From an uncultured Gammaproteobacteria bacterium (GTDB lineage Bacteria > Patescibacteriota > Microgenomatia > Levybacterales > GWA1-39-11): 64,000 nucleotides of DNA. The notes under the pieces are model-generated. The model made no database searches and was not told where the DNA came from. It saw only the letters and a program-made list of their open reading frames with translations. The translations under genes and the position numbers were made by a program. Below are positions 6,410-48,008 of this stretch, one piece after another (positions within the stretch are counted from its first letter, which is position 1; the number at the start of each line of letters is the position of its first letter). The stretch spans positions 106,137 through 170,136 of the forward strand of contig CAYRKM010000001.1 in assembly GCA_964425075.1 (NCBI GenBank), read 5' to 3'.

Positions 6410-6570
6410 ACATCACAAACAGTACCTACAATTTTACTCCTTTTGAACCCAAATGTCAAGCTATAGGATGTTTCTGCTACCCAGAAATAGGATAACTTTT
6501 TGAGCAATGACTAATGGTTAATAGCTAATAGTTTTTTTGTATTTCAAACTAATTTTTCTCTTTCGTCGTT

Positions 6571-7102: not shown

Positions 7103-7155
7103 AATCTATTCTAGTCACAATAAAGATAAGATGTAAACCACCTATCTCAATTCAT

Positions 7156-23600: not shown

Positions 23601-26600
23601 TGTACCACTCAACTCAACGCTTGACTTCACTCTTGGTGGTCAATCAAGCGCATCAGCAAAATTTGCAGTACTTAATATCGGCACAGGAACACCCACAGCT
23701 TCAATCTCTGCAAATTCTGGAGATAATGCTCTATATATAACAGGAGACGGTTCTCTTGCAACAACCAATAGACAAAGCCTAACAATTGGAAATTCATCAA
23801 CATATAACACAACGGGAAATGTGCTGATAAATTCTAATGCAACCGGCAATGTTGGGTTAAGAACCGCAACGCCTACAAGTTTCAACGTAGAATTTGCGGG
23901 AAGCCTTGGACCAGCAGTAGATAATTCCTCTGTTCTTGGATCTGCATCAAGGAGATTAAATTCTATATATTTAGGTGACGGTGGTCTCCAAGCTGTAGGC
24001 AATGCCGGAACTTCCGGATCTGTAAATATCAATACAGCTGCAAGTGCTGTTACGGTCACTAGATACGGACAAAGGATATTGAATAATACGTTAAATACTA
24101 CAACAGACGGAATTGATAAATATGGACTTTATATCAACAACACAGGTTCTTTTACAGGACTGACAGGAACTTCTACCAATAACTACTCTTTATACATCTC
24201 TACACCTTCAGGTGCTGATAACAATTATTCTATATATTCAGCGGGTGGAACAAATTACCTTGCAGGAAATACAGGACTTGGTACAACAACACCGACAGCT
24301 CTTCTTGATGTAGCAGGTACTGCTTCTGTTTCAGGGGCTTTGAAGCTATATGGAACTCCTACCATCCAATCTACTGCAAATCAAACATTGACACTAGGTG
24401 GAGATACAACTGGAAGTATTGTGCTTTCACCTCTCAATGGTTCGGGGACAATTCAACTTACAAATTTTACTACAAACGGTGGCTTAATATATACTAATGG
24501 ATCAGGTGTACTGGCTCAAACCGGTGCAGGAAGCGCTACTCAATGTTTGCTTGGAGGCACTACTCCTACTTATGGCAGTTGTGCAACTGGAACAACCGTA
24601 ACACCTTTCCAAGAATTAACTGGTGCAATAGTACCAAATAATTCAACTCTGGACTTCCTAATTGGAGGGCAAGCAACAGCAAGTGCTAAATTTGGAATAT
24701 TAAATATAGCCGGAGGAACACCAACCGCCTCAATTAGTGCAAATAATGGGAATATAGCAACTTACCTTGCCGGTGACGGGACTCTTGCAACTACAAATAG
24801 GCAAACTTTAACTATTGGTAATTCCTCTACATACAACACAACGGGAGAAGTACTAATAAATCCTAATGGAACTGGAAATGTAGGCGTCGGGACAACAAGC
24901 GCAAGGTCAAAATTCCATGTTGCCAATGCTTACTCAGGCCAAGCAACACCTAATGCCTCTTCTATCTTAACAATTGAAAACAATGCTAATGCATATTTAA
25001 GTTTTCTTACACCGGCCAATGTTCAGAGCGGTATCCTTTTTGGAAGTCCTACAAATTCAGCTCAAGGACAAATTACCTACAATCATTCTTCAAATTATTT
25101 AAATTTTTATACAGGAGGAGCTGATAGGGCTAGAATTACAAGCACGGGTTTTGGAATCGGCATGACTTCACCAATATCTCAACTTCATGTTTCAAGAAGT
25201 GCAGCGGCTACGGGCAAAGCATTGGCTGTTTTTGATCAAACGGAAAGTCAAGATATAATAACAGCTTCTGCTTCTGGTATTACAAAGTTTGCAATTACAA
25301 ACAGTGGGGTTTTGCAACTTGTTGGTGGACAAACTTCAGATATTGATACTTTAACAAATGCTACTCTAAATATTGGGGCGACAAATGCCACCACTATTTC
25401 TATTGGTCGATCAAGCCAAGGTATTACACTTCCTGGATTTACTGGTCAAAATGGAATACTTTATGGAACTTCAGGAACTGGAGTATTAGCTCAAGCGACT
25501 ACTGCCTCTACTGGTCTTTGTCTACTCTCAGGAGCCGCAAATCCAGCTTGGGGAACTTGTCCAACAACAGGAAATTCAAGCTCAAACTGGACACTGAACT
25601 CAACAGATGGAACTCTTTATCCAATAAATAGTACTCTTGATGTATTAATAGGTAATACTGCATCAACTTCTGCCAAATTTGCATTCTTAAATGTTGCTGG
25701 AGGAGTACCCACAGCTTCAATTTCTGCAAATACAGCTGATAACAATACTTTCTTAACAGGAGCTGGTAACCTTGCAACAACCAACAAACAAACCCTAACA
25801 CTTGGGGGCAGCACAACAGGAGGAATAGTTATTGATTCAGGAAGCTCCTCAATAAATCTTGCGGATGATACCTCTATAACAGGTAATATTACTGGCTCAG
25901 GTACAACTGGACTTACTCTCACGGGTGCTGGAGCTGGAATTACCTTCTCAGGAAGTGGACTTCATGAAATAGGTGCCTCATCAGGAACTCTTCGAATTGG
26001 AACACACACACTAACCGGCGCAATAACCGGAGGAAATCAAAATATCAGCTCAATTGGTAACATCTCAGCGAATTCTTCCTCAAATACATTAACTGGTTTT
26101 GGAACAATTGGAACTTCTGGAACTACTGCTTTCGTTGGCACCAACCTAACCCTAGCAGGTGCTGCAACTGATATAACTTCAGGTGCCAATCAAGACTTGG
26201 CAATAACTGCAAATGGTACAGGAAACCTAATACTTACCACAGATTTTGATACTAGCGTAAAAGTTGGTACATCAAATAATATCATGGCACCTCTTTCGGT
26301 ATCTGGAGGTATCGGATCTAATGCTGGATTTATCCTAGATCAACTTAATGATGGGGACTTATTCACTGCCTCTGCTGCTGGGGTTACTAAATTTACTTTC
26401 ACAAACGGCGGGTCGCTTAACCTTACAGGTGGTCAAACAATAGATACTTTAGCTTCCGGAACTCTAGGAATTGGCACTACAACAGCTACTACTCTTACGT
26501 TGGGCAGAAGTGGACAAGGGATTACACTTCCAGGCTTTACGGGTCAAAATGGAATACTTTATGGAACTTCAGGAACTGGAGTACTTGCACAGGCCACGAC

Positions 26601-29611: not shown

Positions 29612-29995
29612 ATGGTAAACAATAATACAAACAAGTATGCAAATGTAGAGGAATTACCTGTATGGCAAAAGGCTCATGAATTTACTCTCCTAATCTATAA
29701 GCATTCCTCCGTGTTTCCTTCTTCTGAAGTATATGGTCTCACATCTCAAATCAGAAGATCTACCTCATCCATTCCTGCAAATATAAGCGAAGGATTTTAT
29801 AGAAAAAGTACCAAAGAACTTATTCAATTTATTTATAATGCACGTGGCTCTCTTGGAGAGACTCTTTATCACATTCGATTGGCGAAAGATCTAAAATATT
29901 TAGATGAAAAAACATTTTTATTACTTCGTTCAGAAGCTGAAGATATCAGCAAGCAAATGAACGGCTGGTTAAAAAGCTTAAAATCCAAACTCTAA
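29612..29995 (+). CDS. four-helix-bundle protein of the 23S-rRNA-intervening-sequence / Avd (DGR accessory variability determinant)-like family
   Basis: LPVWQKAHEFTLLIYKHSSVFPSSEVYGLTSQIRRSTSSIPANISEGFYRKSTKELIQFIYNARGSLGETLYHIRLAKDLKYL matches the family signature as I recall it (VWQKAH.L.L.IYK....FPK.E.YGLTSQ(I/L)RRAA.SI.(A/S)NIAEG..R.S.KE...FL.IA.GS..E...). 127 aa. Confidence 0.75.
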   Translation: MVNNNTNKYANVEELPVWQKAHEFTLLIYKHSSVFPSSEVYGLTSQIRRSTSSIPANISEGFYRKSTKELIQFIYNARGSLGETLYHIRLAKDLKYLDEKTFLLLRSEAEDISKQMNGWLKSLKSKL

Positions 29996-30052: not shown

Positions 30053-32185
30053 TCATTTAATTATGTAGCTTATTTCAATTGCTGTAAAACCAGAGCGTAC
30101 AATGGGGTCAAAAACAGGTGGTTTGGGTGAAAGGCTTGGCTTAGTTTCAAACTGTTCAATGTAAAAAACGATGTTTCGGTAAGTATCGGGTTGACGACTA
30201 AAATAAATCGGTAAAATTTGTTTTGATAAACTGTTGTCATAAAAAGATAAAAATACATAAGGCGAATTAATATGATTTTTAGCGAAATTCACGGCGTCTT
30301 CAGTTTCTCTTTGATTTAAACCAAAATTTATTGCATATTCACGAATTGTTTTATCAATACTTGAGGCATCTATAACTTTTCCATATGCAGGCCGCTCAAG
30401 TTTCATATCTGGATTGTAGTTAAAAGATATATTCTCAACGGATTTTCCGTTTGCAACAAAGGAGCCATTATTGCCTAAAGTAATTTTGAAACCTTCCTCA
30501 GGATTGTAGGCAGTATTTACGGAATAAATTGGTATTCCAACGGACACCTTCAAATTTGTTCCCTCTTCTCCGTACAAATATAACGGGCATGTTCCTGAGC
30601 ACATATTTGTAGCATTGTTTACGCAAGAAGCTTGCTCAGCACCATCAGTAAGAGTTCCACAGGCTTGTGCTGCTGCTGTTTGTGTACAGTCCAATTGAGA
30701 AGTATTATTTGCGTTCGTTGATGAAGGGAAATTATTCCTTGCGATTCTTACAGGTGCAAGCGTTGGTTTTACAACAAATGTATCAAGTTGCAATTGTTCT
30801 CTTTGCGGTTTGACTGCGTTTCTACCCAAAACTGCTGAATCAAAAAAATTTGCATCTGTTAGTGCTATGAATTGTATAAAAGAATCATTATGATTTACAG
30901 CTACACGCTCACCTGTTTTTTGGTCAAAAATGGATACCGCACTAAGAGACTGTTCGTATCTTGCTCCAAGATTTCCCATAGCAGATTGACCGGTAGCAAC
31001 GCTTGTTAGTAAGAGTTTTCCGTTAGATAAAGAGGTTTTAATGGTGTTTACAGATGTTTTAGATGAATCATCATACGCAATGTCAAAATCTATCTTTTTT
31101 GAAGAATTTTGACTAAATGAATAGCTGTGTGTTTCAAGAGATTTCGTTGTAGAGTTTACAACTTGGTATAGAATGTCTCCTGTTGTTAAATCAAAAGTAG
31201 CTGAAGTAAAGACATCATCTCCTTGAGCTGTTATTAATTTTGTCCTGCTTTTTGTTGTAACATCTAATGTTTCTATGGTATTTGCAACCGAAAATACTCT
31301 TTTTGCTCCATTCACAATTTGAGTTCCGTCACCTCTCGCCCCATCATAACCCACAAAAACAAATTTTGATTCATCCTCTGAAAGCGTGGGTTGATTAGCA
31401 TAGGTCCCATCTTGCATAGAAGTAAGATCCCCCCTGCTTGTTCCTGTAAAATTAGAAACGCTCATGCCATATGACCATCCCATGCCAGCGTTTGGTATAA
31501 ATTTATTAACATAAATTTCACCACTACTTGTAATTGCAATGGGATAGCGAATTGTGTTTCCGGGAGTTGCAACCTCGTCATAAATTAAGTTTTTTTGTCC
31601 AGGATTTTGTATATCAATGCTATAAATCCTTGATTTTGCGTCTATAAGCTGAGGGGAATCTGAGGCTAGACTTAATTCCCAGGTTGTTATATATCTACCG
31701 TTTTTAGACACAAAGTAGTCATCTATTCCAAAATTCTCTTCTGCAGTTACAATCACTGTTTCTTTTTTAGAAGAAATATCATAAAGAACAAGAGACTTTG
31801 CATAGTCTCGCGCATCTGTATCTTTTAGAAATAAAAGCTCGTTATTCGATAGAACTTTTACGTTCTTAATATTGGTTGGTAGAGTTGCAAGTGTGGCAGC
31901 TGTATTTGTTGAAAGATCCGTAACTTCAATCACAGAGGAGCTTCCTGCCCAATATCCATACACTAAAGCATTATCGGACAAAAATTTTTTTTCAACTGTC
32001 TGTTTTTGTTGGTTTTGAGAAGACTTGCTATTGTTTTGACGGGCTGAATTCCATGCAAACGCGCCTCCAAATAAAATAATCACAACTAGCAAAACCACTA
32101 CTCCTTTTATATTGGTTCTAGGATCTACTTTCTGAAACCAAGAACTTTGGTTGACTTGTACCTGGGGCTGATTATTTTCTTCCAC
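30053..32185 (-). CDS. N-terminally TM-anchored beta-propeller (TolB/WD40-like) protein with Cys-containing conserved C-terminal domain; tandem paralog of 32235..34370
   Basis: N-terminal TM (GVVVLLVVIILFGGAFAW). Repeated propeller-blade-like segments. C-terminal ~110 aa nearly identical to the paralog. Confidence 0.55.
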   Translation of the reverse strand: MEENNQPQVQVNQSSWFQKVDPRTNIKGVVVLLVVIILFGGAFAWNSARQNNSKSSQNQQKQTVEKKFLSDNALVYGYWAGSSSVIEVTDLSTNTAATLATLPTNIKNVKVLSNNELLFLKDTDARDYAKSLVLYDISSKKETVIVTAEENFGIDDYFVSKNGRYITTWELSLASDSPQLIDAKSRIYSIDIQNPGQKNLIYDEVATPGNTIRYPIAITSSGEIYVNKFIPNAGMGWSYGMSVSNFTGTSRGDLTSMQDGTYANQPTLSEDESKFVFVGYDGARGDGTQIVNGAKRVFSVANTIETLDVTTKSRTKLITAQGDDVFTSATFDLTTGDILYQVVNSTTKSLETHSYSFSQNSSKKIDFDIAYDDSSKTSVNTIKTSLSNGKLLLTSVATGQSAMGNLGARYEQSLSAVSIFDQKTGERVAVNHNDSFIQFIALTDANFFDSAVLGRNAVKPQREQLQLDTFVVKPTLAPVRIARNNFPSSTNANNTSQLDCTQTAAAQACGTLTDGAEQASCVNNATNMCSGTCPLYLYGEEGTNLKVSVGIPIYSVNTAYNPEEGFKITLGNNGSFVANGKSVENISFNYNPDMKLERPAYGKVIDASSIDKTIREYAINFGLNQRETEDAVNFAKNHINSPYVFLSFYDNSLSKQILPIYFSRQPDTYRNIVFYIEQFETKPSLSPKPPVFDPIVRSGFTAIEISYIIK

Positions 32186-32234: not shown

Positions 32235-34370
32235 TTACCTAACGATGGAGCTTATCTCGATTGCTGTAAAACCAAAACGCACAATGGGGTCAAAGACAGG
32301 AGGTTTGGGTGAAAGGTTTGGCTTAGTTTCAAACTGTTCAAAATAGAACACAATGTTTCGATATGTATCAGGATGTATCGAAAAGTATAGAGGTAGGATT
32401 TGTTTTGAGAGATTATCATCATAAAATGAAACGTACACATAGGGGCTTGTAATTTCTTTTGCAAACATCACACTATCTTCTGTTTCCTTTTGATTAAATC
32501 CTAATTTTTCAGAATATTCCTTAATGGTTTGCTTGAGATCTGAAAGTTTTACAATTTTTCCGTAAGAAGGTCTAGATAATTTTCTGATGGCAGATGTGTA
32601 ATCAAAGGAGATACTTTCAACTACACTTCCATTTGCCCGAAACTTCCCATCCGATAAAAGCGTAATATCAAATCCATTTTGAGGTAAATATAAAACATTT
32701 GTAGAAAAAATTGGAGTACCTACAGATACATTTAAACTAACTCCCTGTTGTCCATATAAATATAACGGGCTTCTATAACACGACCCCGATGTTCCATCTG
32801 CATCTGTCCATGATTGAATAAAACACCCGTCTTTTGTGTCAAGACCCGCACACTGCTGCTGCAAAAGATCACTTCCACAACCCCTGTCTATTGGGGTATT
32901 TTGTATAGGACCTTGTTGAGGCGGTTGACTTTGGTTTATTTCTCGCACTGGAGCAAGTGTAGGTTTTACTGCAAATGTTTCCAATTGAAGCTGCTTTCCC
33001 TGAGAATTAATTGATTTATTTGCCTGCTTGTTTGCATTTAAATTAGAAGTTTTAAAGTATTTAGAACCTTTTAAGGCTATAAATTGCACGTACCCACCAT
33101 TTAGGCTAACTCGTTCACTGCTTCCTGATTTTGGAGTAAAAACTGACAAACTACTTATTGATGGTTCATAACTAAAACCTAGATTCCCAAGCGCTGAGTC
33201 CGAAAGAACACTTTCTGATAACAATAAACTCCCTCCCTGAAGAGATGACCGCACCGATCCTCTATTACCTTCCGGAAGGTCAACTTTTTTAGAGGAATGA
33301 GTGTCAAAATAATATTTATTTATGTCCCTGCCAGTTTTATCATCATAAGAAGCGTAAATTATATTTCCGTCTTGTAAATCCCATTGCGCCTTCTGGTAAA
33401 TTCCGTCAATACCCGAAACCAATTTGGTTCTGATTTTTGTATTTGTATCAAAAACTTCAATAGTATTAGGAGTAACAGACGCTCTTCTGTAACCATTCAC
33501 AATTTCCACACCATCCCCTTTACTACCATCATAGCCTATAAAAAGTATTTTTCCCCCGTCCGGTGATATTATTGGTTGGCTTGAATATGTTCCGTTGGCC
33601 ATTGAAGCAATTTCTGACTTAACTGAACCTGTAAAATTGCTCATACTCATACCATAAGCCCAACCCACACCCGAATTTGGCAAAAATTTATCCATAAAAA
33701 TCTCACCATTATCCGTTATTCCAACAGGATAATGCACTGCAATACCTACGGGCGCAGCCTCATCATAAATTAAATTTTTACTTCCTGGTTTTGAAATATC
33801 AACACTATAAACTCTTGAACGACCTCCCGATAGTATTGATGAATTTGGTGCTGGGCTTATTTCCCATATGGCAATATATTTACCATTTGGTGAAACCACA
33901 TATAAATCAATTCCATACCCTGAATCTGTAGTGGATATAACATTCTCAGTACTATCACTAATCCTATAACTAACAACGCTCTTCCCATAGTCAGATGCGT
34001 CAGTATCTTTTATAAAAATTAAATTGTCATCTGAAACAACACTAACCTGCTTGATGTTATTTGGCAAAACGGCAAGTGTGCTGTTTGTGCTTGTTGATAG
34101 ATCTACTGACTCAATAACTGAATTTTTATCAACCCAATAACCATATACTACTGAATTGTCTGCAAGAAATTTTGTCTCTGTAGACTGCTTTTGTTGTTCT
34201 GTCTCTTTTTTTGAAGAATTTCTCTCAGAATTCCATGCAATCGCACCTCCAAACAAAATAATCACAACTAGCAAAACCACTACTCCTTTTATATTGGTTC
34301 TAGGATCTACTTTCTGAAACCAAGAACTTTGGTTCACCTGAACCTGATGAGGCTGATTATTTTCTTCCAT
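32235..34370 (-). CDS. N-terminally TM-anchored beta-propeller protein; tandem paralog of 30053..32185
   Basis: Same architecture. The first ~45 aa and last ~80 aa are nearly identical to the paralog at protein and DNA level. Confidence 0.55.
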   Translation of the reverse strand: MEENNQPHQVQVNQSSWFQKVDPRTNIKGVVVLLVVIILFGGAIAWNSERNSSKKETEQQKQSTETKFLADNSVVYGYWVDKNSVIESVDLSTSTNSTLAVLPNNIKQVSVVSDDNLIFIKDTDASDYGKSVVSYRISDSTENVISTTDSGYGIDLYVVSPNGKYIAIWEISPAPNSSILSGGRSRVYSVDISKPGSKNLIYDEAAPVGIAVHYPVGITDNGEIFMDKFLPNSGVGWAYGMSMSNFTGSVKSEIASMANGTYSSQPIISPDGGKILFIGYDGSKGDGVEIVNGYRRASVTPNTIEVFDTNTKIRTKLVSGIDGIYQKAQWDLQDGNIIYASYDDKTGRDINKYYFDTHSSKKVDLPEGNRGSVRSSLQGGSLLLSESVLSDSALGNLGFSYEPSISSLSVFTPKSGSSERVSLNGGYVQFIALKGSKYFKTSNLNANKQANKSINSQGKQLQLETFAVKPTLAPVREINQSQPPQQGPIQNTPIDRGCGSDLLQQQCAGLDTKDGCFIQSWTDADGTSGSCYRSPLYLYGQQGVSLNVSVGTPIFSTNVLYLPQNGFDITLLSDGKFRANGSVVESISFDYTSAIRKLSRPSYGKIVKLSDLKQTIKEYSEKLGFNQKETEDSVMFAKEITSPYVYVSFYDDNLSKQILPLYFSIHPDTYRNIVFYFEQFETKPNLSPKPPVFDPIVRFGFTAIEISSIVR

Positions 34371-34501: not shown

Positions 34502-35089
34502 TTGACAAATATATTTACCTCCTTCTACTATATATGTATGGAACAGAACGTTGAAGTGCCCACAACTGCTAGCTCCACATCATTCCTCTCACGATATGTA
34601 ATGATTACATCTATTCTTGTTATCATCGGCGTTGCAGGAATTGCTATTTATTTACTTTTAAATAAAGGATCAATAAAACCTACCTCAAATAATCAAACTC
34701 TCGCCTCCTCCCCAAATTGCACGAATGAAAAAATTTATACTGATGTAAAAGAAGCGTTGCTTTTAGAAGGGCAAAAAATTTGCTACATTGATGCAAAAGC
34801 CCCAGACAAAGAATATGTTTTTCCTAGTGATATTGTCAAACATGCAAATACCCGAAATCTAGTCTATCTTTCACTTGATGGATATAACTTATCAGCTATG
34901 AGAGATTCACTTGAAGTTTTACAGGATTTAGAAGTTCTTAAACTCAAAAATGCACATTTGTCCGCACTTCCAAGGGGAATAGACAAACTTACAAAACTTA
35001 AAGAGCTCGATCTTTCAGGTAACGAATTCACTGAAACAGGAAAAAACGAAATCCACCAGAAATTCCCAAATGTAAAAATCAGCTTCTAA
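34502..35089 (+). CDS. TM-anchored leucine-rich-repeat (LRR) protein
   Basis: TM ITSILVIIGVAGIAIYLLL. LRR units LVYLSLDGYNLSAM / LEVLKLKNAHLSALPRGIDKLTKLKELDLSGNEF. The true start may be the internal Met (MEQNV.., nt 34538). Confidence 0.55.
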   Translation: MTNIFTSFYYICMEQNVEVPTTASSTSFLSRYVMITSILVIIGVAGIAIYLLLNKGSIKPTSNNQTLASSPNCTNEKIYTDVKEALLLEGQKICYIDAKAPDKEYVFPSDIVKHANTRNLVYLSLDGYNLSAMRDSLEVLQDLEVLKLKNAHLSALPRGIDKLTKLKELDLSGNEFTETGKNEIHQKFPNVKISF

Positions 35090-35202: not shown

Positions 35203-38200
35203 CTATCTGCAGCCCAACAATTCTGTAGTTCCAACACTATCGCTGAAGCGGTATTTTACCGGAGAAAGCGCTTGTGAACAATTAGAGCTGCTGTAAAGAG
35301 TTCTAACAACTGTAGAACCACATGTTGTTGAAGTTGTTACATCACCGGTTACACTTCCAACATACGTATCCCCCCCCCAACAATTTGTAAGTGACTGATT
35401 TGAATATGCAGTGCAAGAGGCGCTGTAATCTTTGTAATACCATCCCTGACAACTTCCCGTTGTAGTACCGTTGGTTGCAGAAGTATATGAACTCTGATCA
35501 TTTACAACGGTAGAATCTCTTGTATAGCTTGAGCCGCCAACGCAATCATAGTCAAAACTACCATCTCCCCTATTAGTCGAGAAGTATGCCGTCTGTCCGG
35601 GTTTTGCATTTGAATTACTGTCATAACAATCTGCTGTACTTTGTGTTCCTCGAGAATTTGCAGCACCACAGTAAGTATAGGAAGTAGCAGAAGCTAAATA
35701 ACCATCTCCATCTGCATCAGCTCCTGTATATCCTGAGCTTGTAGTTGAATTCGTAGAATTACTATCTGCATCGTTACAATCAGTTGTGTTACTTGCATAC
35801 CCTGCAGGAGGACTGCCGGCCCCACATACAGAACTTGACCCATCCCCTGAATAAATTGTTATCTTGATTCCATCAATGCTTGCCGTTCTTGATGATCCAC
35901 TTGTATTCTTATAAGAAACAACAACTCCAAAGCCAGATGCATTTACGTCACTTGAAGTTAGTGTTGTTCCCCACAAATCATTTGCCCTACCATACACCTT
36001 ATTAGTATCAGAACCTGTTAATCTAGAACTTCCTACATCAGCCCTCTCCTCACCTACGATAGACCCACCCTTTACTAACTTTACGCTGTAATCACCTATA
36101 CTACTCGTAGCACTCGCTTTACTCTCAACTTCAACTATTACACCATTTATAGTGCCACTTACATTAAATCCAAAATTGGTAGCTTTTAAGTATCGTGATA
36201 ATGAACCTGCACCAATAGAAGCTGTTGCATATATATTATCTGATGCTCCAACATTTGTTGCATTTGTCCAGCTAACAGAACCTACGCTGTTATCGGTTGC
36301 CGCGGTCTGTGGGAAGGTTGCACTTGATATATTTGATGCAACTCCTTTAGTATCAGCATCACTGTCGGGATAATAAGTGTCAGAAGTCCAACAAGTTGAA
36401 GAGGCCGATACTCCATCGCTACAAAGCCCAGTATCAGCACAATCAGTTGAACCTCCTCCAAGAACAGCAGCCGAAGCTAGTCTAGTATAAGCTCCTGCTG
36501 AATCTTTATAGTAAGTTCTTGTATTTATAACAGAGGTTGCTCCAACACACTGGTCTGAAGCCGCAGCTGAAGTTTTGTACCCATCATTATCACTATCTGT
36601 TACAAGACTTGTAATTGTTTGATAAATATTTGCATTTGCGCTATTACAATCAAATGTATTTACTGCGCGAAGAAGTGAATAATAAGGATATGTACTTGAA
36701 AAACCATTTCTTCTTACAAATCCTGCACCCGGAGAAGTCGCACTCACTGCTCTTGTACCGTCATCAACTACTCCATCTGCATCTGCATCTTTTACCCAAA
36801 CCCCACCCCTAATAAGACTTCCACCACTTGCAAGAATAAGAGTACCACCACTTAATGCAATACTTCCTCTTCCAATTTTTTGGCCTGAATTCAGAGTAAG
36901 AGATGCGCCTGTGCTAAGAGTAAGACTTGCAGTATTTGAAGTTCCAGCTCCTAAATCAACTCCATCATTATCATCATCAAAACTACATGATTCAGAGATT
37001 GTTAGATTGCCAGATGTAGCCGGATCGCAAGGACTTACTTGTCCTGAAGTCGTAGTAAATGCTTGCGGAGTTGTAGAAGTGGTAGTTCCTGCTGAATTCG
37101 TAGCATAAGTACAATACCAATAATTTGTGCTTGGTGTAAGCCAGCTTGGATTCCCATAACCGGTAGTTATGCTTTTCTGTTGTGTTACAGCATTAGTAGT
37201 AAGAGCTATATCGTTTCCGGACAAAAGAGGGACTCTCGTTCCTCCTGTATCATTAGTTGCACAGGTTCCGGGGTCTGACGTAAGTACTCTAAAATGCATT
37301 GTAGTGGCCAAACTATTAGGATTTGCGCTTCCGTTAAGAGTTACCTTGAAGGAGCCTACATTTGTCTCTGCATCTGCAGTAACTGAGTTTGGGGCATTTG
37401 AGGCAGTTGTAAAAGTATCATCCGTTGTATAGCTCGTACCAACTGCATTTGTCGCATATGCTCTATAGTGATATAAAGTGTCTGCGTTTAAGCCAGTTGC
37501 ACTGACTGTAAATACACCTGTTGTTCCAGTTGTACTAAAACATGTTCCTCCAAGAGCAGGATTGGAACTAGTACCAACACATACCCCTCTTCCGGTTATG
37601 CTTGAGCCTCCATTTGAGGTCACATTACCACCTAGGGTTGCGCCACTTGAAGTAATACTTGTGTTGGTAGGGGTTGTAATTGTTGGAGCATCAGGAGGTG
37701 GTACTACAATAGTAAATGCGCGAGATGTCTGAATAGCTCCACTTAACGTAAATGCTCCTGGATTTTCAGAGGAAGCATTCAGCTGTCTGTATGCAGAACC
37801 TGCCAATTGTTGAGAGATACCTCCGGTCTGATTTGAAGGTGTTGTGCTTGTATAGTCAGTTGGATATGTTGAGATAGTACGTGTAGTACCAAAAAGATGA
37901 CCATGTAAATCATAAGCTATCCAAAGCCAATCTTTTGCACCCCCAGTAGGAGTAAACGTTCCGGGATCAACAGAGGAAGTATTAGATCCACTTACTATAC
38001 TACTAACCTGGCTAGCAGATGAAGGATGAGAACCGGTAATAAGATATACCTGGGTTGCCCAACCACCACTCGTGTCTTGGGTAAAGGTTACCGAACCAGA
38101 GCTTTCACTCCCTGAAGCTATTTTTTCATAAACAGAAACATATTGGTTATCATCATATATTCGAGTCCAACCAGAGGGAGCTGAACCCCCACCTCCTCCA

Positions 38201-38829
38201 CCCGATGTAAAAAATGCGGCAACAAGACGGTCACCCGCAGTAACTGCAGGAACTGAAACAGAAAGAGAGGTTTGACTTGAGTTGCTACCATTATTCGTTA
38301 CTGAAGACACAGCAGGAAAAGAAGAACTATCATGAAGTTCAAAAGTATAAATTTGGGTACCGCAATTTCCTGCACTTCCAAGACCGGTTATTTTCCAATA
38401 TTGTGCAGAGGCTGATGTCAGACTTACCAAACCAGTATCTCCCCCTGTTAAATTAGTGGGACTTGTGTAACGGTTTGTCCAATTGCTATCGTCTGTACTT
38501 GATTCAATTTTATACTGAGTCATCCTATGACATTCATTTGATGGCTCTAGCAATCTAAAACCTGTAATAGTTCTTGCTGACCCAAGATTTACTTTTAACC
38601 ATGGAGATGCATTCGTCAATGTAGTAGACATCCAGGCTGTTGAATCATTTACATCAATCGCATCAGCTGGTGTGCCAGAGTAATTATCAATTCCCGTAGC
38701 CGATGCTCCATTTGCAGATGTTGCCCGATTTGCAGCATGTACATTATTTGTAAAAGCAATTTGAAGAAAAATTACAAAAAACAAAATAGCTATACTTTTT
38801 GTAATGTATGATTTTATATATCTATCCAT
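35203..38829 (-). CDS. large (1208 aa) secreted adhesin-like protein: signal peptide, F5/8 type C (discoidin)-like domain, at least two FN3-like modules, Cys-rich C-terminal region
   Basis: Signal AILFFVIFLQIAFTNNVHA. Discoidin-like GIDNYSGTPADAIDVNDSTAWMS..ASPWLKVNLGSARTITGFRLL...YKIESSTDDSNW. FN3-like TGLNADTLYHYRAYATNAVGTSY and NYWYCTYATNSAGTT. Confidence 0.6.
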   Translation of the reverse strand: MDRYIKSYITKSIAILFFVIFLQIAFTNNVHAANRATSANGASATGIDNYSGTPADAIDVNDSTAWMSTTLTNASPWLKVNLGSARTITGFRLLEPSNECHRMTQYKIESSTDDSNWTNRYTSPTNLTGGDTGLVSLTSASAQYWKITGLGSAGNCGTQIYTFELHDSSSFPAVSSVTNNGSNSSQTSLSVSVPAVTAGDRLVAAFFTSGGGGGGSAPSGWTRIYDDNQYVSVYEKIASGSESSGSVTFTQDTSGGWATQVYLITGSHPSSASQVSSIVSGSNTSSVDPGTFTPTGGAKDWLWIAYDLHGHLFGTTRTISTYPTDYTSTTPSNQTGGISQQLAGSAYRQLNASSENPGAFTLSGAIQTSRAFTIVVPPPDAPTITTPTNTSITSSGATLGGNVTSNGGSSITGRGVCVGTSSNPALGGTCFSTTGTTGVFTVSATGLNADTLYHYRAYATNAVGTSYTTDDTFTTASNAPNSVTADAETNVGSFKVTLNGSANPNSLATTMHFRVLTSDPGTCATNDTGGTRVPLLSGNDIALTTNAVTQQKSITTGYGNPSWLTPSTNYWYCTYATNSAGTTTSTTPQAFTTTSGQVSPCDPATSGNLTISESCSFDDDNDGVDLGAGTSNTASLTLSTGASLTLNSGQKIGRGSIALSGGTLILASGGSLIRGGVWVKDADADGVVDDGTRAVSATSPGAGFVRRNGFSSTYPYYSLLRAVNTFDCNSANANIYQTITSLVTDSDNDGYKTSAAASDQCVGATSVINTRTYYKDSAGAYTRLASAAVLGGGSTDCADTGLCSDGVSASSTCWTSDTYYPDSDADTKGVASNISSATFPQTAATDNSVGSVSWTNATNVGASDNIYATASIGAGSLSRYLKATNFGFNVSGTINGVIVEVESKASATSSIGDYSVKLVKGGSIVGEERADVGSSRLTGSDTNKVYGRANDLWGTTLTSSDVNASGFGVVVSYKNTSGSSRTASIDGIKITIYSGDGSSSVCGAGSPPAGYASNTTDCNDADSNSTNSTTSSGYTGADADGDGYLASATSYTYCGAANSRGTQSTADCYDSNSNAKPGQTAYFSTNRGDGSFDYDCVGGSSYTRDSTVVNDQSSYTSATNGTTTGSCQGWYYKDYSASCTAYSNQSLTNCWGGDTYVGSVTGDVTTSTTCGSTVVRTLYSSSNCSQALSPVKYRFSDSVGTTELLGCR

Positions 38830-38840
38830 ATATTAATATG

Positions 38841-39839
38841 TCATCTAACTGTTAACCTTTTAGTTAATGTGTTTCCCGCACTGTCATTTGCTGTTATATC
38901 CATCCCGTATTGTGTGTTGTAAGTATCAGTTACTTGCCATGTTCCGGTCCATATTCCGCTTGTTTCCGTTCCGCTTGTCCTAGTCAACGTAAATTCTCTT
39001 GCTTCATTATCAGAATACAAAACCAAAGAGACATTTGCAGAAATTGGGGCTTCTGTATCATCAATCTTTACTTGAACTTGCTGAGCATTTCCAATAGTCT
39101 GCCACAATGGCATCATGGTTAATTCATAGATGTCAGGATTGGTACCTGCTGGATTTCCAATCGCGTAAGTGACTGAACCATCAGGAAGTGGAGTTGGTGT
39201 TGGTGTTCCCGTTAAACCAATTGTTGGAGCAGCTGAGGTGGGAGTTGGCGTTGTTGTTTGGTATGTCTCCTCTCCTCCAAGCAAACTTGAGGCCGAAAGA
39301 CTACTACAATTTACAGAACCTGAAAGTGTACAAGCCCAATTTCCTTCCGAATAGCCTTCGGGAGCACAGTTGGAAAGAGACGAAAGCGGACAAGCGTTAG
39401 TTATTTGCGTTTCACTGGATAATTTGGCAAAAACCACATTCCACTGAGGACAAGTAGTTCCACTTTCTGTTCTATAGCGATAACAACTCCCACTTCCACC
39501 ATCACAGGTTGGATCCTGGGGCACTTTTTTCATATACACAGTGTTTCCAACTCTCCATTCATCTCCAAAAGGAAGTTGAGTTGGATAGCAATGAGTATCG
39601 TTATAATAAGCATCAGCTGCTATTCGGATTTGGGAAATGTCTGATTGTCTCTGAGCATCTCTGCTTTTATTAATTTGTCTTATTGGATTTAGGGTCAAAA
39701 TTACTCCACCACCAAGAGTCGCAAGAATTGTAACTGCAATAAGAACCTCAACAAGAGTAAAGCCTCTTTCTCTTCCTATATATATGCGGGCAGTTCTCAT
39801 TTTTATAAAATAATTTCTATTGAATAATAATTGTTCCAA
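38841..39839 (-). CDS. type IV pilin / pseudopilin-like protein with prepilin (class III) signal peptide; unusually large (about 320 aa mature)
   Basis: RERG|FTLVEVLIAVTILAT is a canonical prepilin peptidase site (G followed by F-T-L-V-E plus a hydrophobic helix). The start is probably the internal Met (MRTARIYIGRERG, nt ~39800). Cys pairs in the C-terminal region. Confidence 0.7.
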   Translation of the reverse strand: MEQLLFNRNYFIKMRTARIYIGRERGFTLVEVLIAVTILATLGGGVILTLNPIRQINKSRDAQRQSDISQIRIAADAYYNDTHCYPTQLPFGDEWRVGNTVYMKKVPQDPTCDGGSGSCYRYRTESGTTCPQWNVVFAKLSSETQITNACPLSSLSNCAPEGYSEGNWACTLSGSVNCSSLSASSLLGGEETYQTTTPTPTSAAPTIGLTGTPTPTPLPDGSVTYAIGNPAGTNPDIYELTMMPLWQTIGNAQQVQVKIDDTEAPISANVSLVLYSDNEAREFTLTRTSGTETSGIWTGTWQVTDTYNTQYGMDITANDSAGNTLTKRLTVR

Positions 39840-40332
39840 CCAAATTTGTACCTTTTACTTTATATGTATAAGTTCCAGGATTGGTAAATTTAACGTCCTT
39901 TGCATCAGCTACAGCAACTGTAAAATTCAAAAAACTACTTTTTGAGTCTGCTCCTTCAATTACAACTGAATCAGTTCCTATATTAAAAAAGCTAATATTA
40001 TTCCCTGCCTTAATTGTGACGCTTTGGGGATTTAGTCTTCTTGCGTTAATCATTACAGTCATATCCTTTATGGGTGGAATTGTGGGATATGGAGTTGTGT
40101 TTACTCTTTGTGTGGGAAGTGTTGTTACGGGGGTGGATGGTGAAGTCACTTGACTCCCTTTTCCAAAAAGCAAAATAACTGAAAGAATAAGAAAAATTAC
40201 TATTCCGCCTACGAGAACACCCATAATTATCTTTTCATTTCTACTCATAATTCTTTTGAGGTCTGTTGATATGTACCCTTGCTCATCTGCATGAGCATGT
40301 TTTTTGTGGGCATTTTTTCTGTGAGCTTTCAT
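39817..40332 (-). CDS. membrane-anchored protein with a cupredoxin-like beta-sandwich domain lacking copper ligands
   Basis: N-terminal His/Lys-rich stretch, TM (IIMGVLVGGIVIFLILSVILLF), then SVTIKAGNNISFFNIG..VVIEG...FTNPGTYTYKVKG resembling the cupredoxin fold. No Cys/His/Met ligand set. Confidence 0.4.
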   Translation of the reverse strand: MKAHRKNAHKKHAHADEQGYISTDLKRIMSRNEKIIMGVLVGGIVIFLILSVILLFGKGSQVTSPSTPVTTLPTQRVNTTPYPTIPPIKDMTVMINARRLNPQSVTIKAGNNISFFNIGTDSVVIEGADSKSSFLNFTVAVADAKDVKFTNPGTYTYKVKGTNLVGTIIIQ

Positions 40333-40648
40333 TTTTCATTCAAACTAATCACAGAGCAATAAAAAGCTCTTTAACCCAGTATAGATATATCTGAAAAATA
40401 ATGTCAATACCTCAAATGAAGCTACTAAATTTGTCTAGAAAATTTAACCACCCTACTAATAATTTTAAAATATTCTTGCATTGTCCTTAATTAGTGCTTA
40501 ATGTATCAATCTATAAAACAATATCATATTACCTAACAAAAAAATATCCTCCTTCCTATATATACTCTATTTTTCTCAACAGTTTGTTGACAGGAACTTT
40601 AAAACTTTGTTACAGTAAACTATATCCTAATTTGAATTTTGATTCGAT

Positions 40649-42769
40649 ATGAAGAACAACGGAGCTACTACATACATAAATTCAGTTGCAACGATACTAA
40701 TCGCTACAACCTACCTCCTTTTGCCTGTTTTCTTTTTAAATGTTACAACTGACTTTTTTACATTTCCCAAACAAGCTCTTATTGTTGGTTCTTCTCTGCT
40801 TTTATTTGTGTTATGGGGAATACGTAGTTTGGTTGAACGCAAGGTAACCTTACTCCTCAACCCACTAAATCTTCCTGTATTATTATTTGGAGTTGTTACA
40901 ATTCTATCAACTGCTTTCTCTGTTTCTTTTCAAGATTCAATTATTCTCTCTGTGCCCATTGCTCTTCTTTGTCTATTTTTCTTTCTTACGGTAAATTTTG
41001 TACAAGAAAAATCTACTTTTTCAGTTGTTCTGGTCTCTCTTATAATAGGAAGCGCTATTTCTACCGCAATAAGTATTCTTTCCTACTTCAAGATTTATAT
41101 ATTACCTATTGTTCAAACTCACTCTCCAGAATTTAATACCTTTGGAGCACCCATCCAATATATTGCTTTTCTTACCCCTCTTTTTGTAATTTCCACGGCG
41201 TCCCTTGCTACCATTCTAAAAAGTGGCAAATTAGGCTCAATCACACGCAACTATAATAATCTTCTTGAAAGTGCAACAACCCTTATTTTTGGAGGGGGAC
41301 TTATTCTTGCTGCGATCCAAATAATAAATTTGCCTCAAAAACCTATTCTTTTACCCTTCAACTATGGTTTTCAAATTGCGTTTGCAACTATAAGCCAAGA
41401 ATCGACCCGACTCGTGCAAAACTTATTATTGGGTTCTGGATACGGCACTTTTGCGCATGATTTTACTAGATATATAACACCAAGCTTTAATTCATATCCA
41501 TTCTGGAGTTTGCCATTCTCATTTTCATCATCATATGTACTTGAGATTCTTGCAACAACTGGAGTTTTGGGACTTTTTGCTTTTGCTTTTATATTTGTGA
41601 ATTTCCTTCGCACTCGCCGCTCATTTACCAATCCTATCTTTTTAGGAGTTCTTTCAACCTTTATCCTTTCTCTTATTATTCCTTTCTCCTTTGCCTTGAG
41701 CTTCCTTCTTTTTGGACTTCTTGCTTTATATGTTTCACAGCTTACTATCTTAAGAAGTCGCCACACTGACAATGTATCAATCAACTTTATGGCTACTAAC
41801 CAAGGGCTCTTCTCGGTTGCTGATGAATCAAAAAGAACCAGAGAAAACATTGTCCTTCCGTTAACAGTATTTCTTCTAAGCGTTGCTGTTGCAGTTTTTG
41901 TTCTATTTTTCCTTACTGGTGGAGCTGGGGGCACAAGGAAAGGATATATAGCACTTATCAGCTCTGATATTAAATTTGCAAAGTCATTCGCTCCTACTTC
42001 TCTTCAAAGTGGGGTTGAAACTTACAATCTCCAAACACAAGCTATAGCAGAATATCCATACAGAAGCGACTACTACCGAGTCTTCTCTCAAGTGAATCTT
42101 GCGCTTGCATCAAACATTTTGCAGGCTCAACAACCAAATACTCAACCCACTCAAGAAGTTCAACAAAATATCCTAGGACTTTTACAGCAAAGCATAAATA
42201 GTGCCCGACAGGCTGTAACTCTTTCCCCAATGACCTCAGCAAATTGGCAGAATTTAGGTCAAATTTACAGAAATCTTATAGGTGTTGGGGAGAATGCTGA
42301 ACAGTTCGCTATTGCGTCCTACAATCAGGCAATTACCCTGAACCCCTCAAATCCAGGACTTAGGGTTGAACTTGGAGGTATTTATTACCAACTAAAACAG
42401 TGGGATATGGCACAACAACAATTCTTAATCGCTTCTCAGCTTAAGAATGACTATGCAAATGCTTATTACAATTTAGGTAAATCATTTGAGCAAAAAGGTG
42501 AGCTTACCACTGCCCTTCAGCAATTCCAAATCGTAAAACAATTGGTAGCCAATGACAAAAACAATCTTGATATTATCAGTAAAGAAATAGCTGCACTTGA
42601 ATCTAAAATTGGTGAGCAAGCAAAGGTAACTGAGGAAAATCGAACCCCAACTGATGACAAAAGCCCACTTGAAGTACCTCAACCAGCAGCCGATTTTCCA
42701 GACCAGGATCCAAAAATTACAATTCCCAAACCTCCAGTAGATGAAAGCGCCACCAAATCTGCACAGTAA
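40649..42769 (+). CDS. O-antigen ligase (Wzy_C)-like polytopic membrane protein with C-terminal TPR repeats
   Basis: At least ten hydrophobic helices, then TPR-like units (AYYNLGKSFEQKGELTTALQQFQIVKQL; ASYNQAITLNPSNPGLRVELGGIYYQLKQWDMAQQQF). Confidence 0.5.
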   Translation: MKNNGATTYINSVATILIATTYLLLPVFFLNVTTDFFTFPKQALIVGSSLLLFVLWGIRSLVERKVTLLLNPLNLPVLLFGVVTILSTAFSVSFQDSIILSVPIALLCLFFFLTVNFVQEKSTFSVVLVSLIIGSAISTAISILSYFKIYILPIVQTHSPEFNTFGAPIQYIAFLTPLFVISTASLATILKSGKLGSITRNYNNLLESATTLIFGGGLILAAIQIINLPQKPILLPFNYGFQIAFATISQESTRLVQNLLLGSGYGTFAHDFTRYITPSFNSYPFWSLPFSFSSSYVLEILATTGVLGLFAFAFIFVNFLRTRRSFTNPIFLGVLSTFILSLIIPFSFALSFLLFGLLALYVSQLTILRSRHTDNVSINFMATNQGLFSVADESKRTRENIVLPLTVFLLSVAVAVFVLFFLTGGAGGTRKGYIALISSDIKFAKSFAPTSLQSGVETYNLQTQAIAEYPYRSDYYRVFSQVNLALASNILQAQQPNTQPTQEVQQNILGLLQQSINSARQAVTLSPMTSANWQNLGQIYRNLIGVGENAEQFAIASYNQAITLNPSNPGLRVELGGIYYQLKQWDMAQQQFLIASQLKNDYANAYYNLGKSFEQKGELTTALQQFQIVKQLVANDKNNLDIISKEIAALESKIGEQAKVTEENRTPTDDKSPLEVPQPAADFPDQDPKITIPKPPVDESATKSAQ

Positions 42770-45908: not shown

Positions 45909-46607
45909 ATGAAAAAGTCAGTAATTGCACTTTGTGCATCACTTCTTTTCGCAACAAGTACAGCAATGGCAAGCGCCGCTGGTACCGGATATGGACAAAG
46001 TAATTGTCAAATGATCTACGGTGGGGGAGAAGTTTGTAGCGATAAAATAGAATTTACTATTGATAAGAAAGTACTTACTCCAAACAATAGCGGTTTCGTC
46101 GACAATCTTGGTTCAAACGACGCAAAATTTCAACCTGGACAGCAAGTTACATTTAAAATCATTGTTAAAAATACCGGAAACAAGAAAATTGAAAGGCTTG
46201 ATGTAAGAGATACTCTTCCATCATATATAACATTTGTTTCAGGCGTTGGTACATATGATAAAAACGCAAATGTTATAAGTTACACTATTTCAAACCTTGA
46301 AAAAGGAGCAACCAATGAGCAGTCTTTTATTGGAGCAATTGCTTCAGCTGATAAGCTTCCACAAAATCAAAACGTTGTATGTCTTACAAACCATGCACAG
46401 GCAACCGACAATAATGGCATAGTTGCGAAGGACGATGCAGGTCTTTGTGTGGAAAAAGGAATTATCGTAAAAAAACCAACTCCACAAGTATTTGAAAGTG
46501 TTCCTGTGAAGAAAATTCCTGAAACAGGACCTGAAGCACTCTCTCTTATCGCATTAATTCCTGCAGGACTTGCAGGATTTGCACTACGAAAGAAAAAATT
46601 TAATTAA
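45909..46607 (+). CDS. secreted DUF11-like repeat-domain protein with LPXTG-type sortase sorting signal (IPETG + hydrophobic + RKKK)
   Basis: Signal peptide (VIALCASLLFATSTAMASAA). KIIVKNTGNKKIERLDVRDTLPSYITFVSGVG resembles the DUF11 repeat. C-terminal KKIPETGPEALSLIALIPAGLAGFALRKKKFN. Confidence 0.6.
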   Translation: MKKSVIALCASLLFATSTAMASAAGTGYGQSNCQMIYGGGEVCSDKIEFTIDKKVLTPNNSGFVDNLGSNDAKFQPGQQVTFKIIVKNTGNKKIERLDVRDTLPSYITFVSGVGTYDKNANVISYTISNLEKGATNEQSFIGAIASADKLPQNQNVVCLTNHAQATDNNGIVAKDDAGLCVEKGIIVKKPTPQVFESVPVKKIPETGPEALSLIALIPAGLAGFALRKKKFN

Positions 46608-46699
46608 CTTATATACAATTGAGGTTAGAGAAGGCAGCTTTTCTCACACACTCTTCTATTCTTCCCAAGTTTTAGACCTCACCCCAAAAAAGCTCCCTT

Positions 46700-46730
46700 C
46701 CCTAACTTTAAGTTAGGGGTTTTTGTTTGG
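46700..46730 (+). terminator. rho-independent terminator (CCCTAAC-tttaa-GTTAGGG then GTTTTTGTTTGG)
   Basis: Perfect 7-9 bp inverted repeat followed by a T-run, ~90 nt after the stop of 45909..46607. Confidence 0.6.
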
Positions 46731-47181
46731 AAACATCGCCGTTTTGCATGGCAAATATCCAACTCACAAAAACCTTGTTCTTTGACAAGGTAACAGGAAA
46801 AAGGCATTTTTGGTGCCGGGCACAGCGTACCATATTGAACCAAAAGGTTCATATGTCCGATTTCACAATCGGTCATAACAAGCTGCTACGAAGGGGTAAA
46901 ACCTGACGTATAAATATGGTGCGCGCTGTCCGGCGCCAAATGAGCGTGGAAAAACGGGTTTAGAGAAAGGAGGCCAATAATGGCCTATTGCTTGAACTTC
47001 TGCATACTCCTGCTCGACTCCCTTTGGGGAGCGAACAGGATCCGTGCAGGCCCGTTTATTTGAAACGGAAACATCAACCCAGTAGCATAGTAATGACTAA
47101 GCCTTCGCGCAAGCGGAGAGGCAGGTAACTCTGCTAAACCATGCATGCCGGCAAAGTCCGGTTAGCAAAAGGGAGATCACC

Positions 47182-47913
47182 GTGAGGTGGTATTCGTACA
47201 TTGGCCTGGGAGCCGCCGTGATCTTCATGGCTGGATTCTTCAGTGCCTGCTCGGACGACAGTGGAGCCACTGCTGACGAGATCGCTGCTGCGATCATCGC
47301 CGCCCAAGCGACTGCAACCCCAGCAGCAACGGCGGCAGCAACGGCAACGGCTAGCGCACTCACGCCCGACCAAATTCGCCAGATCGTTCTGGACGAAATG
47401 GCCAAGGCGGGGCTGCCAGAGCCGACCAGCGCACAGCTGCAAGAGATCCTCAAGAGCCTCACTGAGGCCCTGAAGGGCTCGACCCAGACTGCAGATCAGT
47501 TCCGCGGTGCCGTCAAGGTCTGGCTGACTTCTAACCAGAAGGTCCAGGCTGGCGTCGTGCCCGCCTATAACCCAGCAGCGTTCCCCAAGAGCGCCGCTGA
47601 GGCAGCAGCCATCTTCGGAGGCGACGCTTCCCGTTGGGAGCCGACGGCTGACTGCTGTGGTTGGCATCTGCGCGAGGAGGCGTTCACCACTCTCATCCAG
47701 CCGAAAGGTTTCCTGGGTGAGGGCTACAACGACACCAAGCCTGGGAAGAATCCGGACTGCTACACGTTCGTTGCGCCAACTTCGGTCCAGGGCGCCACGA
47801 TCTGGCAAGAGGCCGGCACCTACCCGAACGCCGTCGCGCTTCAGAAGAAGATGGCCATCCCCGTCTGGGATGATGGCAAGCAGCACGCTTGCCAGGTACT
47901 CGCAACGCCATAA
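47182..47913 (+). CDS. putative lipoprotein (GTG start) encoded in a GC-rich island; likely horizontally acquired
   Basis: GGGAG SD 7 nt before the GTG. Signal plus lipobox-like AGFFSAC. Ala/Thr-rich linker. Strongly GC-rich versus flanks. A ~280-bp GC-rich leader lies upstream. Confidence 0.55.
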   Translation: MRWYSYIGLGAAVIFMAGFFSACSDDSGATADEIAAAIIAAQATATPAATAAATATASALTPDQIRQIVLDEMAKAGLPEPTSAQLQEILKSLTEALKGSTQTADQFRGAVKVWLTSNQKVQAGVVPAYNPAAFPKSAAEAAAIFGGDASRWEPTADCCGWHLREEAFTTLIQPKGFLGEGYNDTKPGKNPDCYTFVAPTSVQGATIWQEAGTYPNAVALQKKMAIPVWDDGKQHACQVLATP

Positions 47914-48008
47914 GCGCTTAGCTTCTCGCATGGGAGGGGGGTCCGATACGTCGGCCCCCCTCAAATACTTTCACTGGGACATTCCTGTTACCTTGTCCCC
48001 TTTGCCCG

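Follow-up and report, generated by a model that had tools for sequence, protein, structure and literature searches.

The window analysed here is a stretch of 64,000 nt from contig CAYRKM010000001.1 (assembly GCA_964425075.1), and the element in question is a unit of three genes on its minus strand between positions 35203 and 40332. In the order of reading they encode a 171-aa membrane protein (gene 1), a pilin (gene 2) and a secreted protein of 1208 aa (gene 3), and their features are collected in Table 1. All three co-directional ORFs were present where the first-pass annotation of this DNA had placed them. It had described the junctions between them as overlapping and 12 nt long, and both figures had to be corrected. 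The longest ORF of the pilin gene (332 aa, 38841-39839) begins with a TTG at 39839 and overlaps gene 1 by 23 nt. We placed the start at the ATG at 39800, because the N-termini of homologues and the recorded 319-aa product P0001 agree on it. Counted from this ATG, the pilin leader is 13 aa long and the gap between gene 1 and the pilin gene is 16 nt; the gap between the pilin gene and gene 3 is 11 nt.

Conserved homologues were found for all three proteins, and the genes are therefore real and not chance ORFs. The unit is probably co-transcribed. No convincing terminator was found within it, and a promoter-like site lies just upstream of gene 1; this site is a consensus match only, the number of such sites in the region being no higher than expected from shuffled sequence. 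Neither RNA genes nor tandem repeats play a part here, and the window as a whole gave no tRNA or Rfam matches.

To judge from its sequence, gene 2 encodes a type IV pilin. The N-terminus, MRTARIYIGRERG/FTLVEVLIAVTILATLGGGV (the slash marks the predicted point of cleavage), has the features of a class III signal peptide. The prepilin peptidase site G/FTLVE, already singled out in the first-pass annotation, was borne out by matches above the cut-off to both PF07963 (N_methyl; E=4.7e-7, 29.6 bits against 21.2) and TIGR02532 (23.7 bits against 16.3). In total 61 pilin homologues were collected, and 45 of these were aligned. F14 (position +1) and E18 (position +5) are invariant in the alignment, G13 is conserved at a level of at least 90%, and the eight cysteines of the head, with the motifs CPQWNVVF and CPLSSLSNC, are invariant or nearly so. 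The pilin had been credited with a cysteine-containing globular part of about 320 aa. This is the size of the whole protein, which has 319 aa; all eight cysteines lie in the head between residues 71 and 165, and the C-terminal beta-sandwich of 120 aa is free of cysteine. The N-terminus aligns with geopilin, pilin and GspG chains (GspG/T2SSG-like) and is nearest to the GspG-type pseudopilins, with a match to TIGR01710 (E=9e-7) that is below the cut-off and with PF08334 in homologues.

Prediction of the pilin structure had been proposed along with the annotation, and was performed with AlphaFold2 (AF2). The model has a mean predicted local distance difference test score (pLDDT) of 78.8 and consists of a helix at residues 16-69, head strands between residues 82 and 161, a disordered Pro/Thr-rich stretch at about 165-198 and a confidently predicted Ig-like sandwich at 199-319. 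A long alpha1 helix and a beta-sheet head give it the 'lollipop' shape of a pilin. The name 'modular pilin' is used by Raynaud et al. 2021 for a widespread class of proteins, CPR (Candidate Phyla Radiation) examples included, that have this architecture (PMC8179133). As modelled, the product of gene 2 is a modular pilin in that sense, with a pilin module, a linker and an extra folded module, since pLDDT is below 50 in the linker and about 95 in the sandwich and since the same module occurs on non-pilin proteins.

The predicted product of gene 3 is a secreted, adhesin-like protein with a lectin domain. The description of it as a Sec-secreted protein with a discoidin domain was upheld. A signal peptide can be read at its N-terminus and is the only hydrophobic segment of the protein, in which no second transmembrane (TM) segment, LPXTG or other anchor was found. 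The discoidin (F5/8-C) domain matches PF00754 over residues 48-155 with E=2.2e-14 and 54.1 bits, against a gathering threshold of 28.2. Its best sequence matches in the PDB are the CBM32 chitosan-binding discoidin domains 4zxe/2rv9 of a Paenibacillus chitosanase/glucanase (E=1e-5). As to the FN3-like modules of the earlier description, homologues carry PF00041/PF16656 over the same stretch, and in the protein itself the models stay below threshold (fn3, E=0.42; PhoD_N, E=0.012). Residues 167-370 gave no Pfam match. The part from 371 to 800 is common to the relatives at 41-59% identity, and within residues 596-775 the alignment contains invariant cysteines and DxDxDG positions; the whole protein has 24 cysteines and four DxDxDG motifs. 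In the models the conserved part is composed of a beta-solenoid and a jelly-roll. The Cys-rich tail that had been noted was found at residues 996-1208, and its structure was not confidently predicted.

Gene 1 had been annotated as coding for a cupredoxin-like membrane protein. Its product has a His/Lys-rich cytoplasmic N-terminus, one TM segment (about residues 31-55), an invariant TPYPTIPP sequence and a beta domain of about 90 aa. The membrane segment and the likeness in fold thus stand, although the cupredoxin profiles remain below threshold (PF13473, 14.2 bits against 27; plastocyanin TIGR02656, E=0.002, 18.5 bits against 87.85). There are no copper ligands: the protein has no cysteine, and no His or Met is conserved in the beta domain of 22 homologues. 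We therefore rejected copper-binding cupredoxin as its identity, and in what follows 'cupredoxin-like' denotes at most a resemblance in fold. In relatives the large genes are preceded by genes for small membrane proteins, which fall into one superfamily with the 171-aa protein. Kinship of the cupredoxin-like domain with the Ig-like module of the pilin was also considered, and profile-profile comparison of the two gave no signal.

Table 1. Positions in the window of the three-gene unit, its parts and the genes adjoining it
Feature	Position	Strand	Basis or remark
Gene 1, membrane protein of 171 aa	39817-40332	minus	ORF list
Gene 2, pilin, 319 aa from ATG	38841-39800	minus	ORF list and gene call P0001
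Pilin leader peptide, residues 1-13, MRTARIYIGRERG, predicted prepilin-peptidase site G/F	39762-39800	minus	Homologue alignment and profiles
Pilin module, residues 14-165: hydrophobic alpha1 and small beta head with 8 conserved Cys	39306-39761	minus	Alignment, profiles, AF2
Pro/Thr-rich linker, residues 166-198, predicted disordered	39207-39305	minus	pLDDT <50; P/T tract of variable length in all homologues
Ig-like beta-sandwich, residues 199-319 and stop	38841-39206	minus	pLDDT ~95
Gene 3, secreted protein of 1208 aa	35203-38829	minus	ORF list
Sec-type signal peptide, residues 1-32, ...NNVHA/AN	38734-38829	minus	Read from sequence; cleavage site inferred
F5/8 type C domain (discoidin, CBM32-like), residues 40-166	38332-38712	minus	Pfam and PDB sequence matches
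Domain without assigned family, residues 167-370	37720-38331	minus	Conserved in P0063 (65% identity), weakly in L013 (26%)
Pair of FN3-like modules, residues 371-595, with which the part shared by relatives begins	37045-37719	minus	46-51% identity to relatives; homologue annotation; own sequence sub-threshold
Conserved core, residues 596-800: short beta-solenoid, then DxDxDG motifs and conserved Cys	36430-37044	minus	
Jelly-roll, CBM/lectin-like beta-sandwich, residues ~840-995	35845-36312	minus	
Cys-rich C-terminal tail, residues 996-1208 and stop	35203-35844	minus	No TM, no sortase motif; partly conserved in relatives
Promoter-like site TTGACA-18-TATACT	40378-40407	minus	11/12 consensus match, top score of the region, just upstream of gene 1
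Membrane-anchored LRR protein, convergent neighbour	34502-35089	plus	LRR_8 E=1e-7, one TM; closes the locus in relatives too
Polytopic membrane protein, ~11 hydrophobic segments and C-terminal TPR, divergent neighbour	40649-42769	plus	Co-conserved with the unit, including rearranged L043

Synteny of the pilin and adhesin genes in relatives had been chosen beforehand as a test of their linkage. Loci from Levybacteria metagenome-assembled genomes (MAGs) were compared by context look-ups, a scan of species-representative genomes and tblastn/ORF analysis. The linkage withstood it: a large gene bearing the conserved core follows the pilin gene in every related locus that extends far enough (18 out of 18). 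In 15 related loci the pilin gene is itself immediately preceded by a cupredoxin-like gene. The common order is a divergent TPR protein, the cupredoxin-like protein, the bimodular pilin, in some cases a small membrane protein, and the core-bearing large protein; a further small-plus-large pair is sometimes added, and the convergent membrane-anchored LRR protein comes last. Junctions between the same genes are 4-nt overlaps or gaps of 1-6 nt. In the closest relatives, whose pilin is 74% identical, the three genes follow one another directly, just as they do in the window.

The context is broken in two loci only. In L032, where pilin identity is about 29-35%, the triad (1002-7197, plus strand) lies directly downstream of an F-type ATP synthase operon. 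In L043 the order is a membrane-anchored Ig-like protein, the adhesin, a pilin with a Cys-rich head and the TPR membrane protein. L043 and L045 are the informative ones among six loci, most of them short, that were retrieved by a reciprocal search of metagenome contigs from the adhesin core. Directly upstream of the rearranged unit, L043 (129-2699, plus strand) also encodes a protein of 856 aa, in which collagen-like repeats of GPTGATGVT (PF01391, E=6e-19) are combined with a C-terminal part resembling a tail fibre. It should be added that many of the MAG records compared (L008, L010-L014, L016-L022 and others) are titled 'uncultured Gammaproteobacteria bacterium'. They contain the same locus and the same type IV pilus (T4P) operon as the records of Candidatus Levybacteria/Levyibacteriota, and their titles look like placeholder taxonomy.

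The N-terminal modules of the large protein vary between loci: the window has F5/8-C, L003 and L007 have DUF2341/LamG/TLD, and both L006 and an ENA contig have RCC1/WD40-like propellers. In a relative with 69% identity the F5/8-C domain is not N-terminal and follows the first FN3-like module. Among relatives the scaffold thus stays constant while the binding modules attached to it are replaced, a pattern expected of a ligand-recognition protein. The Ig-like module is mobile as well, and L013 contains an additional, secreted copy of it. In every arrangement this module is encoded either beside the core-bearing gene or one gene away from it. In L045 the Ig-like module is apparently fused to the beta-solenoid core within one ORF, which has no signal peptide; this fusion is weak evidence, because a TAA stop is present just upstream and the start is unclear.

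Genes for T4P assembly were found in the relatives. In L025 (4558-16490) they code for PilB (T2SSE and MshEN domains), PilT, PilC (T2SSF), a 189-aa pilin, PilD (A24 peptidase), a paralogue, further pilins, PilM and PilO. The operon was found in this fixed order in 13 loci (L025 and L021-L024, L026, L028-L031, L034, L036 and L037), and one MAG has both the T4P operon (L021) and a pilin-adhesin locus (L035). The pilin encoded beside PilD in these operons is 42-48% identical to residues 13-173 of the unit pilin, the likeness being limited to the pilin module. At its C-terminal end it has a Pro/Thr linker of its own, followed by a tail that is short and rich in cysteine, and several small pilins come after it in the operon. 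Since this PilD-adjacent paralogue is the closest one, the unit pilin looks like a duplicate of a core pilin of the T4P operon with a different C-terminal module.

We interpret the three genes as a pilus-linked surface adhesion module in a Levybacteria-like (Microgenomates/CPR) bacterium, and give this interpretation an even chance of being correct. The first-pass annotation, which had seen in them a pilin-adhesin attachment module, is partly supported. Gene 2 would combine a pilin module duplicated from the PilD-adjacent T4P pilin with an Ig-like module, the two being joined through a flexible Pro/Thr linker. Its product would be cleaved by prepilin peptidase and become part of a pilus, most probably as a tip subunit or one of low abundance, with the assembly machinery supplied by genes at another place in the genome. 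The product of gene 3 would be exported through Sec and, having no anchor of its own, may be retained on the cell surface or on the pilus through non-covalent binding to partners from the locus. As tethers, the Ig-like module and two membrane-anchored proteins of the locus (the cupredoxin-like one and the LRR one) are candidates, singly or together. The putative glycan-binding discoidin and jelly-roll domains would be carried on a conserved scaffold formed by the FN3-like pair, the beta-solenoid/DxDxDG core and the Cys-rich tail, and the unit would mediate attachment to a glycan-bearing surface, for example that of a host cell.

Several observations weigh against this interpretation. Neither Pfam scans nor tblastn with a relative's PilB/T/C/D/M/O detected PilB, PilC, PilD, PilM, PilN or PilO in the 64-kb window, and a six-frame scan of the window for prepilin motifs detected no other pilins. 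Foldseek comparison of the Ig-like module with the PDB returned only generic Ig-like, CBM21 and macroglobulin-domain matches (E~2e-3), and a match to CBM_48 (E=0.0011) was below threshold. A specific function based on the fold search was therefore rejected, and we treat the extra module of the pilin as an Ig-like sandwich without assigned specificity. In L027 and L035 the pilin is devoid of the Ig-like module, which is found on a TM-anchored protein with a Pro/Thr linker of its own, and in L043 the gene next upstream of the adhesin gene encodes a TM-anchored copy; the module thus does not depend on a pilus for its display. We know of no host or ligand for the lineage. Lastly, most related loci share the whole neighbourhood of the unit (Rho, M23 peptidase, TPR protein), so that synteny at such depth is weak evidence of functional coupling.

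The latter point bears on the possibility that the genes are neighbours without physical coupling, namely an ordinary minor pilin (for priming, twitching or another role) and an independent glycan-binding protein, either secreted or associated with the cell wall, brought together as clustered envelope genes of conserved order. The series Rho-M23-TPR-unit-LRR-IVP-giant protein is syntenic in most relatives, and shared ancestry would partly explain the adjacency. Moreover, none of the 61 pilin and 293 adhesin homologues combines a pilin module with the adhesin in one protein, and in some relatives the Ig-like module works without a pilin. What makes mere proximity somewhat unlikely in our opinion is that in every locus the genes overlap or lie close together, that the triad has persisted both in the new context of L032 and through the rearrangement of L043, and that the Ig-like module keeps its place next to the core-bearing gene, or one gene from it, whichever protein carries it.

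The class III signal could also serve only for PilD processing and anchoring in the membrane or a pseudopilus. Gene 2 would then encode a pilin-like anchor and not a pilus subunit, and the short stalk or pseudopilus formed by it would serve at the cell surface to retain or position the large protein or to assist in its release. The pseudopilins of type II secretion systems (T2SS) would be comparable, as would the bindosome of archaea, in which sugar-binding proteins have class III signal peptides. The nearness of the N-terminus to GspG-type pseudopilins agrees with this, as does the location of the unit outside the T4P operon, and the fact that pilin-borne and TM-helix-borne Ig-like modules are interchangeable between genomes fits an anchoring role. 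However, the closest paralogue of the pilin belongs to a canonical T4P operon, in which the retraction ATPase PilT is encoded as well, and no dedicated assembly ATPase or platform gene was found in or near the unit. CPR bacteria have no outer membrane, so that a function of the T2SS type would be needless. We regard an anchoring role of this kind as decidedly unlikely. Participation in a DNA-uptake (competence) pilus, to which the ComEA/ComEC genes of the window (10113-12753), the natural competence of CPR bacteria and a weak, sub-threshold ComGE/ComGF likeness of the pilin N-terminus might point, is very improbable, given that the com genes are 26 kb off and unlinked to the unit in relatives, that the ComG likeness is confined to the generic N-terminal motif and that the partner gene encodes domains of lectin type and not DNA-binding ones.

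A further reading is an adaptor-based display system. The Ig-like module, borne by a pilin or by a membrane anchor, and the cupredoxin-like membrane proteins encoded in front of each large gene might together act as adaptors on which anchor-less giant proteins dock through their conserved beta-solenoid/DxDxDG core, and interchangeable lectin or propeller modules would in this way be displayed on pili or on the cell surface for host recognition. That the locus represents a previously undescribed display system of this sort is an unlikely, speculative proposition at present.

Parts of the unit have counterparts in known systems. The modular pilins of Streptococcus sanguinis (PilB, which bears a vWA module, and PilC, which bears a lectin module; PMC8179133, PMC9934059) resemble the unit pilin in their class III signal, small pilin module, linker and extra non-pilin module. 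They differ from it in three respects: here the extra module is a generic Ig-like sandwich of no recognisable ligand-binding family, the obvious binding domains reside on a separate Sec-exported neighbour, and in some relatives the Ig-like module shifts to a membrane-anchored protein. PilY1 has a calcium site, to which the calcium-type DxDxDG motifs in the conserved part of the 1208-aa protein can be likened. The PilY1/PilC adhesins are similar also in being large non-pilin proteins that are linked to pilin genes and combine a conserved 'carrier' with variable N-terminal modules (PMC8179133). On the other hand, the gene for the 1208-aa protein lies outside a minor-pilin operon, and the association of the protein with a pilus is putative. 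It shows no sequence similarity to these adhesins, and no Pfam or NCBIfam match to their beta-propeller domain was obtained at E up to 0.1. Membership of the PilY1 family was rejected on the latter point.

PilX1 and PilX2 of the Saccharibacteria strain TM7x are comparable in their CPR T4P setting, and PilX2 is needed for efficient host binding (PMC11623550). Their accessory domains, a lectin-like jelly-roll and an RCC1 propeller, are of kinds that also occur on large proteins of the relatives' loci. In TM7x, however, the binding domains are parts of pilin-like proteins encoded within T4P loci, whereas here they belong to a separate secreted protein encoded outside the T4P operon, and the pilin beside the large protein has a canonical PilD site. 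The tapirins of Caldicellulosiruptor are encoded beside T4P genes (bioRxiv 10.1101/359786). No sequence homology to tapirins (PDB 4wa0, 6n2b) was found; the structural match covers about 90 residues of the common beta-helix fold, for which autotransporter beta-helices score similarly, and the remaining domain composition differs.

The Pam pilus is a CPR-specific surface filament of Saccharimonadia and Microgenomatia, and ATP synthase genes are found beside pam operons (bioRxiv 10.64898/2026.03.03.709456). Its pilins have Sec signal peptides and rely on donor-strand exchange; they consist of a beta-sandwich at the N-terminus, the donor strand and a C-terminal domain of truncated Ig-like type, and its chaperones have a C-terminal TM segment (bioRxiv 10.64898/2026.03.03.709456). 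Both systems have Ig-like domains and accessory proteins anchored in the membrane, and both can be found near ATP synthase genes (here in the L032 triad). The published description of Pam nevertheless sets it apart from the unit, which has a pilin with a class III signal and small proteins with an N-terminal TM segment; Pam was judged to be different by the type of signal peptide and the topology of the anchor. The position of the L032 triad next to an ATP synthase operon may be a coincidence. A limited search of the literature found no publication on this Levybacteria locus, which is no proof of novelty.

Among the genes flanking the unit, the 706-aa membrane/TPR protein gave no family match for its membrane domain. 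The TPR part alone matches, and there was no support for identifying the protein as a glycosyltransferase or O-antigen ligase. Between the LRR and IVP genes, two tandem paralogues on the minus strand (30053-32185 and 32235-34370) code for proteins of 710 and 711 aa that are 53% identical. Both are membrane-anchored, contain cysteine in a C-terminal domain and give a weak signal for PD40/beta-propeller. Tblastn found no counterpart to them in any related locus, and they thus look like a lineage-specific insertion. The preceding gene (29612-29995, plus strand) encodes a 23S-rRNA-IVP/bAvd-like four-helix bundle. No reverse transcriptase was present among the ORFs scanned, and a link of this gene with a diversity-generating retroelement is therefore not established. 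It follows a gene for a 2987-aa protein (20614-29577, plus strand) whose sole Pfam matches are N-terminal Phage_int_SAM domains; at this position relatives have versions of 4027-4279 aa with Kelch-type propellers.

By Pfam scans the gene set of the window is that of a small-genome CPR-type bacterium, with genes for ComEA, a split ComEC, leucyl-tRNA synthetase, Rho, RadA, enolase and pyruvate kinase, and also for glycosyltransferases and several very large proteins without a family. The com region (10113-12753, minus strand) consists of ComEA (HHH_3/SLBB) and ComEC, the latter as two overlapping ORFs with the Competence domain at 10952-12142 and the metallo-beta-lactamase domain at 10113-10955. 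The leucyl-tRNA synthetase (12870-15869, minus strand; 999 aa) has an alpha/beta-hydrolase insert (PF06821 Ser_hydrolase, E=1.4e-11, residues 250-404) between the catalytic core and the editing domain. The region 46600-48000 has a G+C content of 49%, compared with 35-40% for the genome, and may be foreign DNA. A 243-aa ORF with a lipoprotein-like signal (...FFSAC) is located there (47182-47913, plus strand), and long ORFs overlap it on both strands.

How bacteria of the CPR (Patescibacteria) find and hold their partners is largely unknown beyond a few cultivated Saccharibacteria, and the Microgenomates, to which Levybacteria belong, have no cultivated model. Although its parts are of known kinds, the locus described here is plausibly a well-defined, conserved candidate attachment locus of an uncultivated lineage. 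It offers a pilin with a canonical PilD site, a giant protein with putative glycan-binding modules that vary among close relatives, and possible tether proteins. Should the pilin and the large protein prove not to be coupled, the locus would be one more modular pilin beside one more large CPR surface protein, both of known kinds. If they are coupled, the variable modules could predict host or substrate glycans from metagenomes, and the occurrence of the Ig-like module on a pilin in some genomes and on a membrane anchor in others would demonstrate an evolutionary rewiring of surface display.

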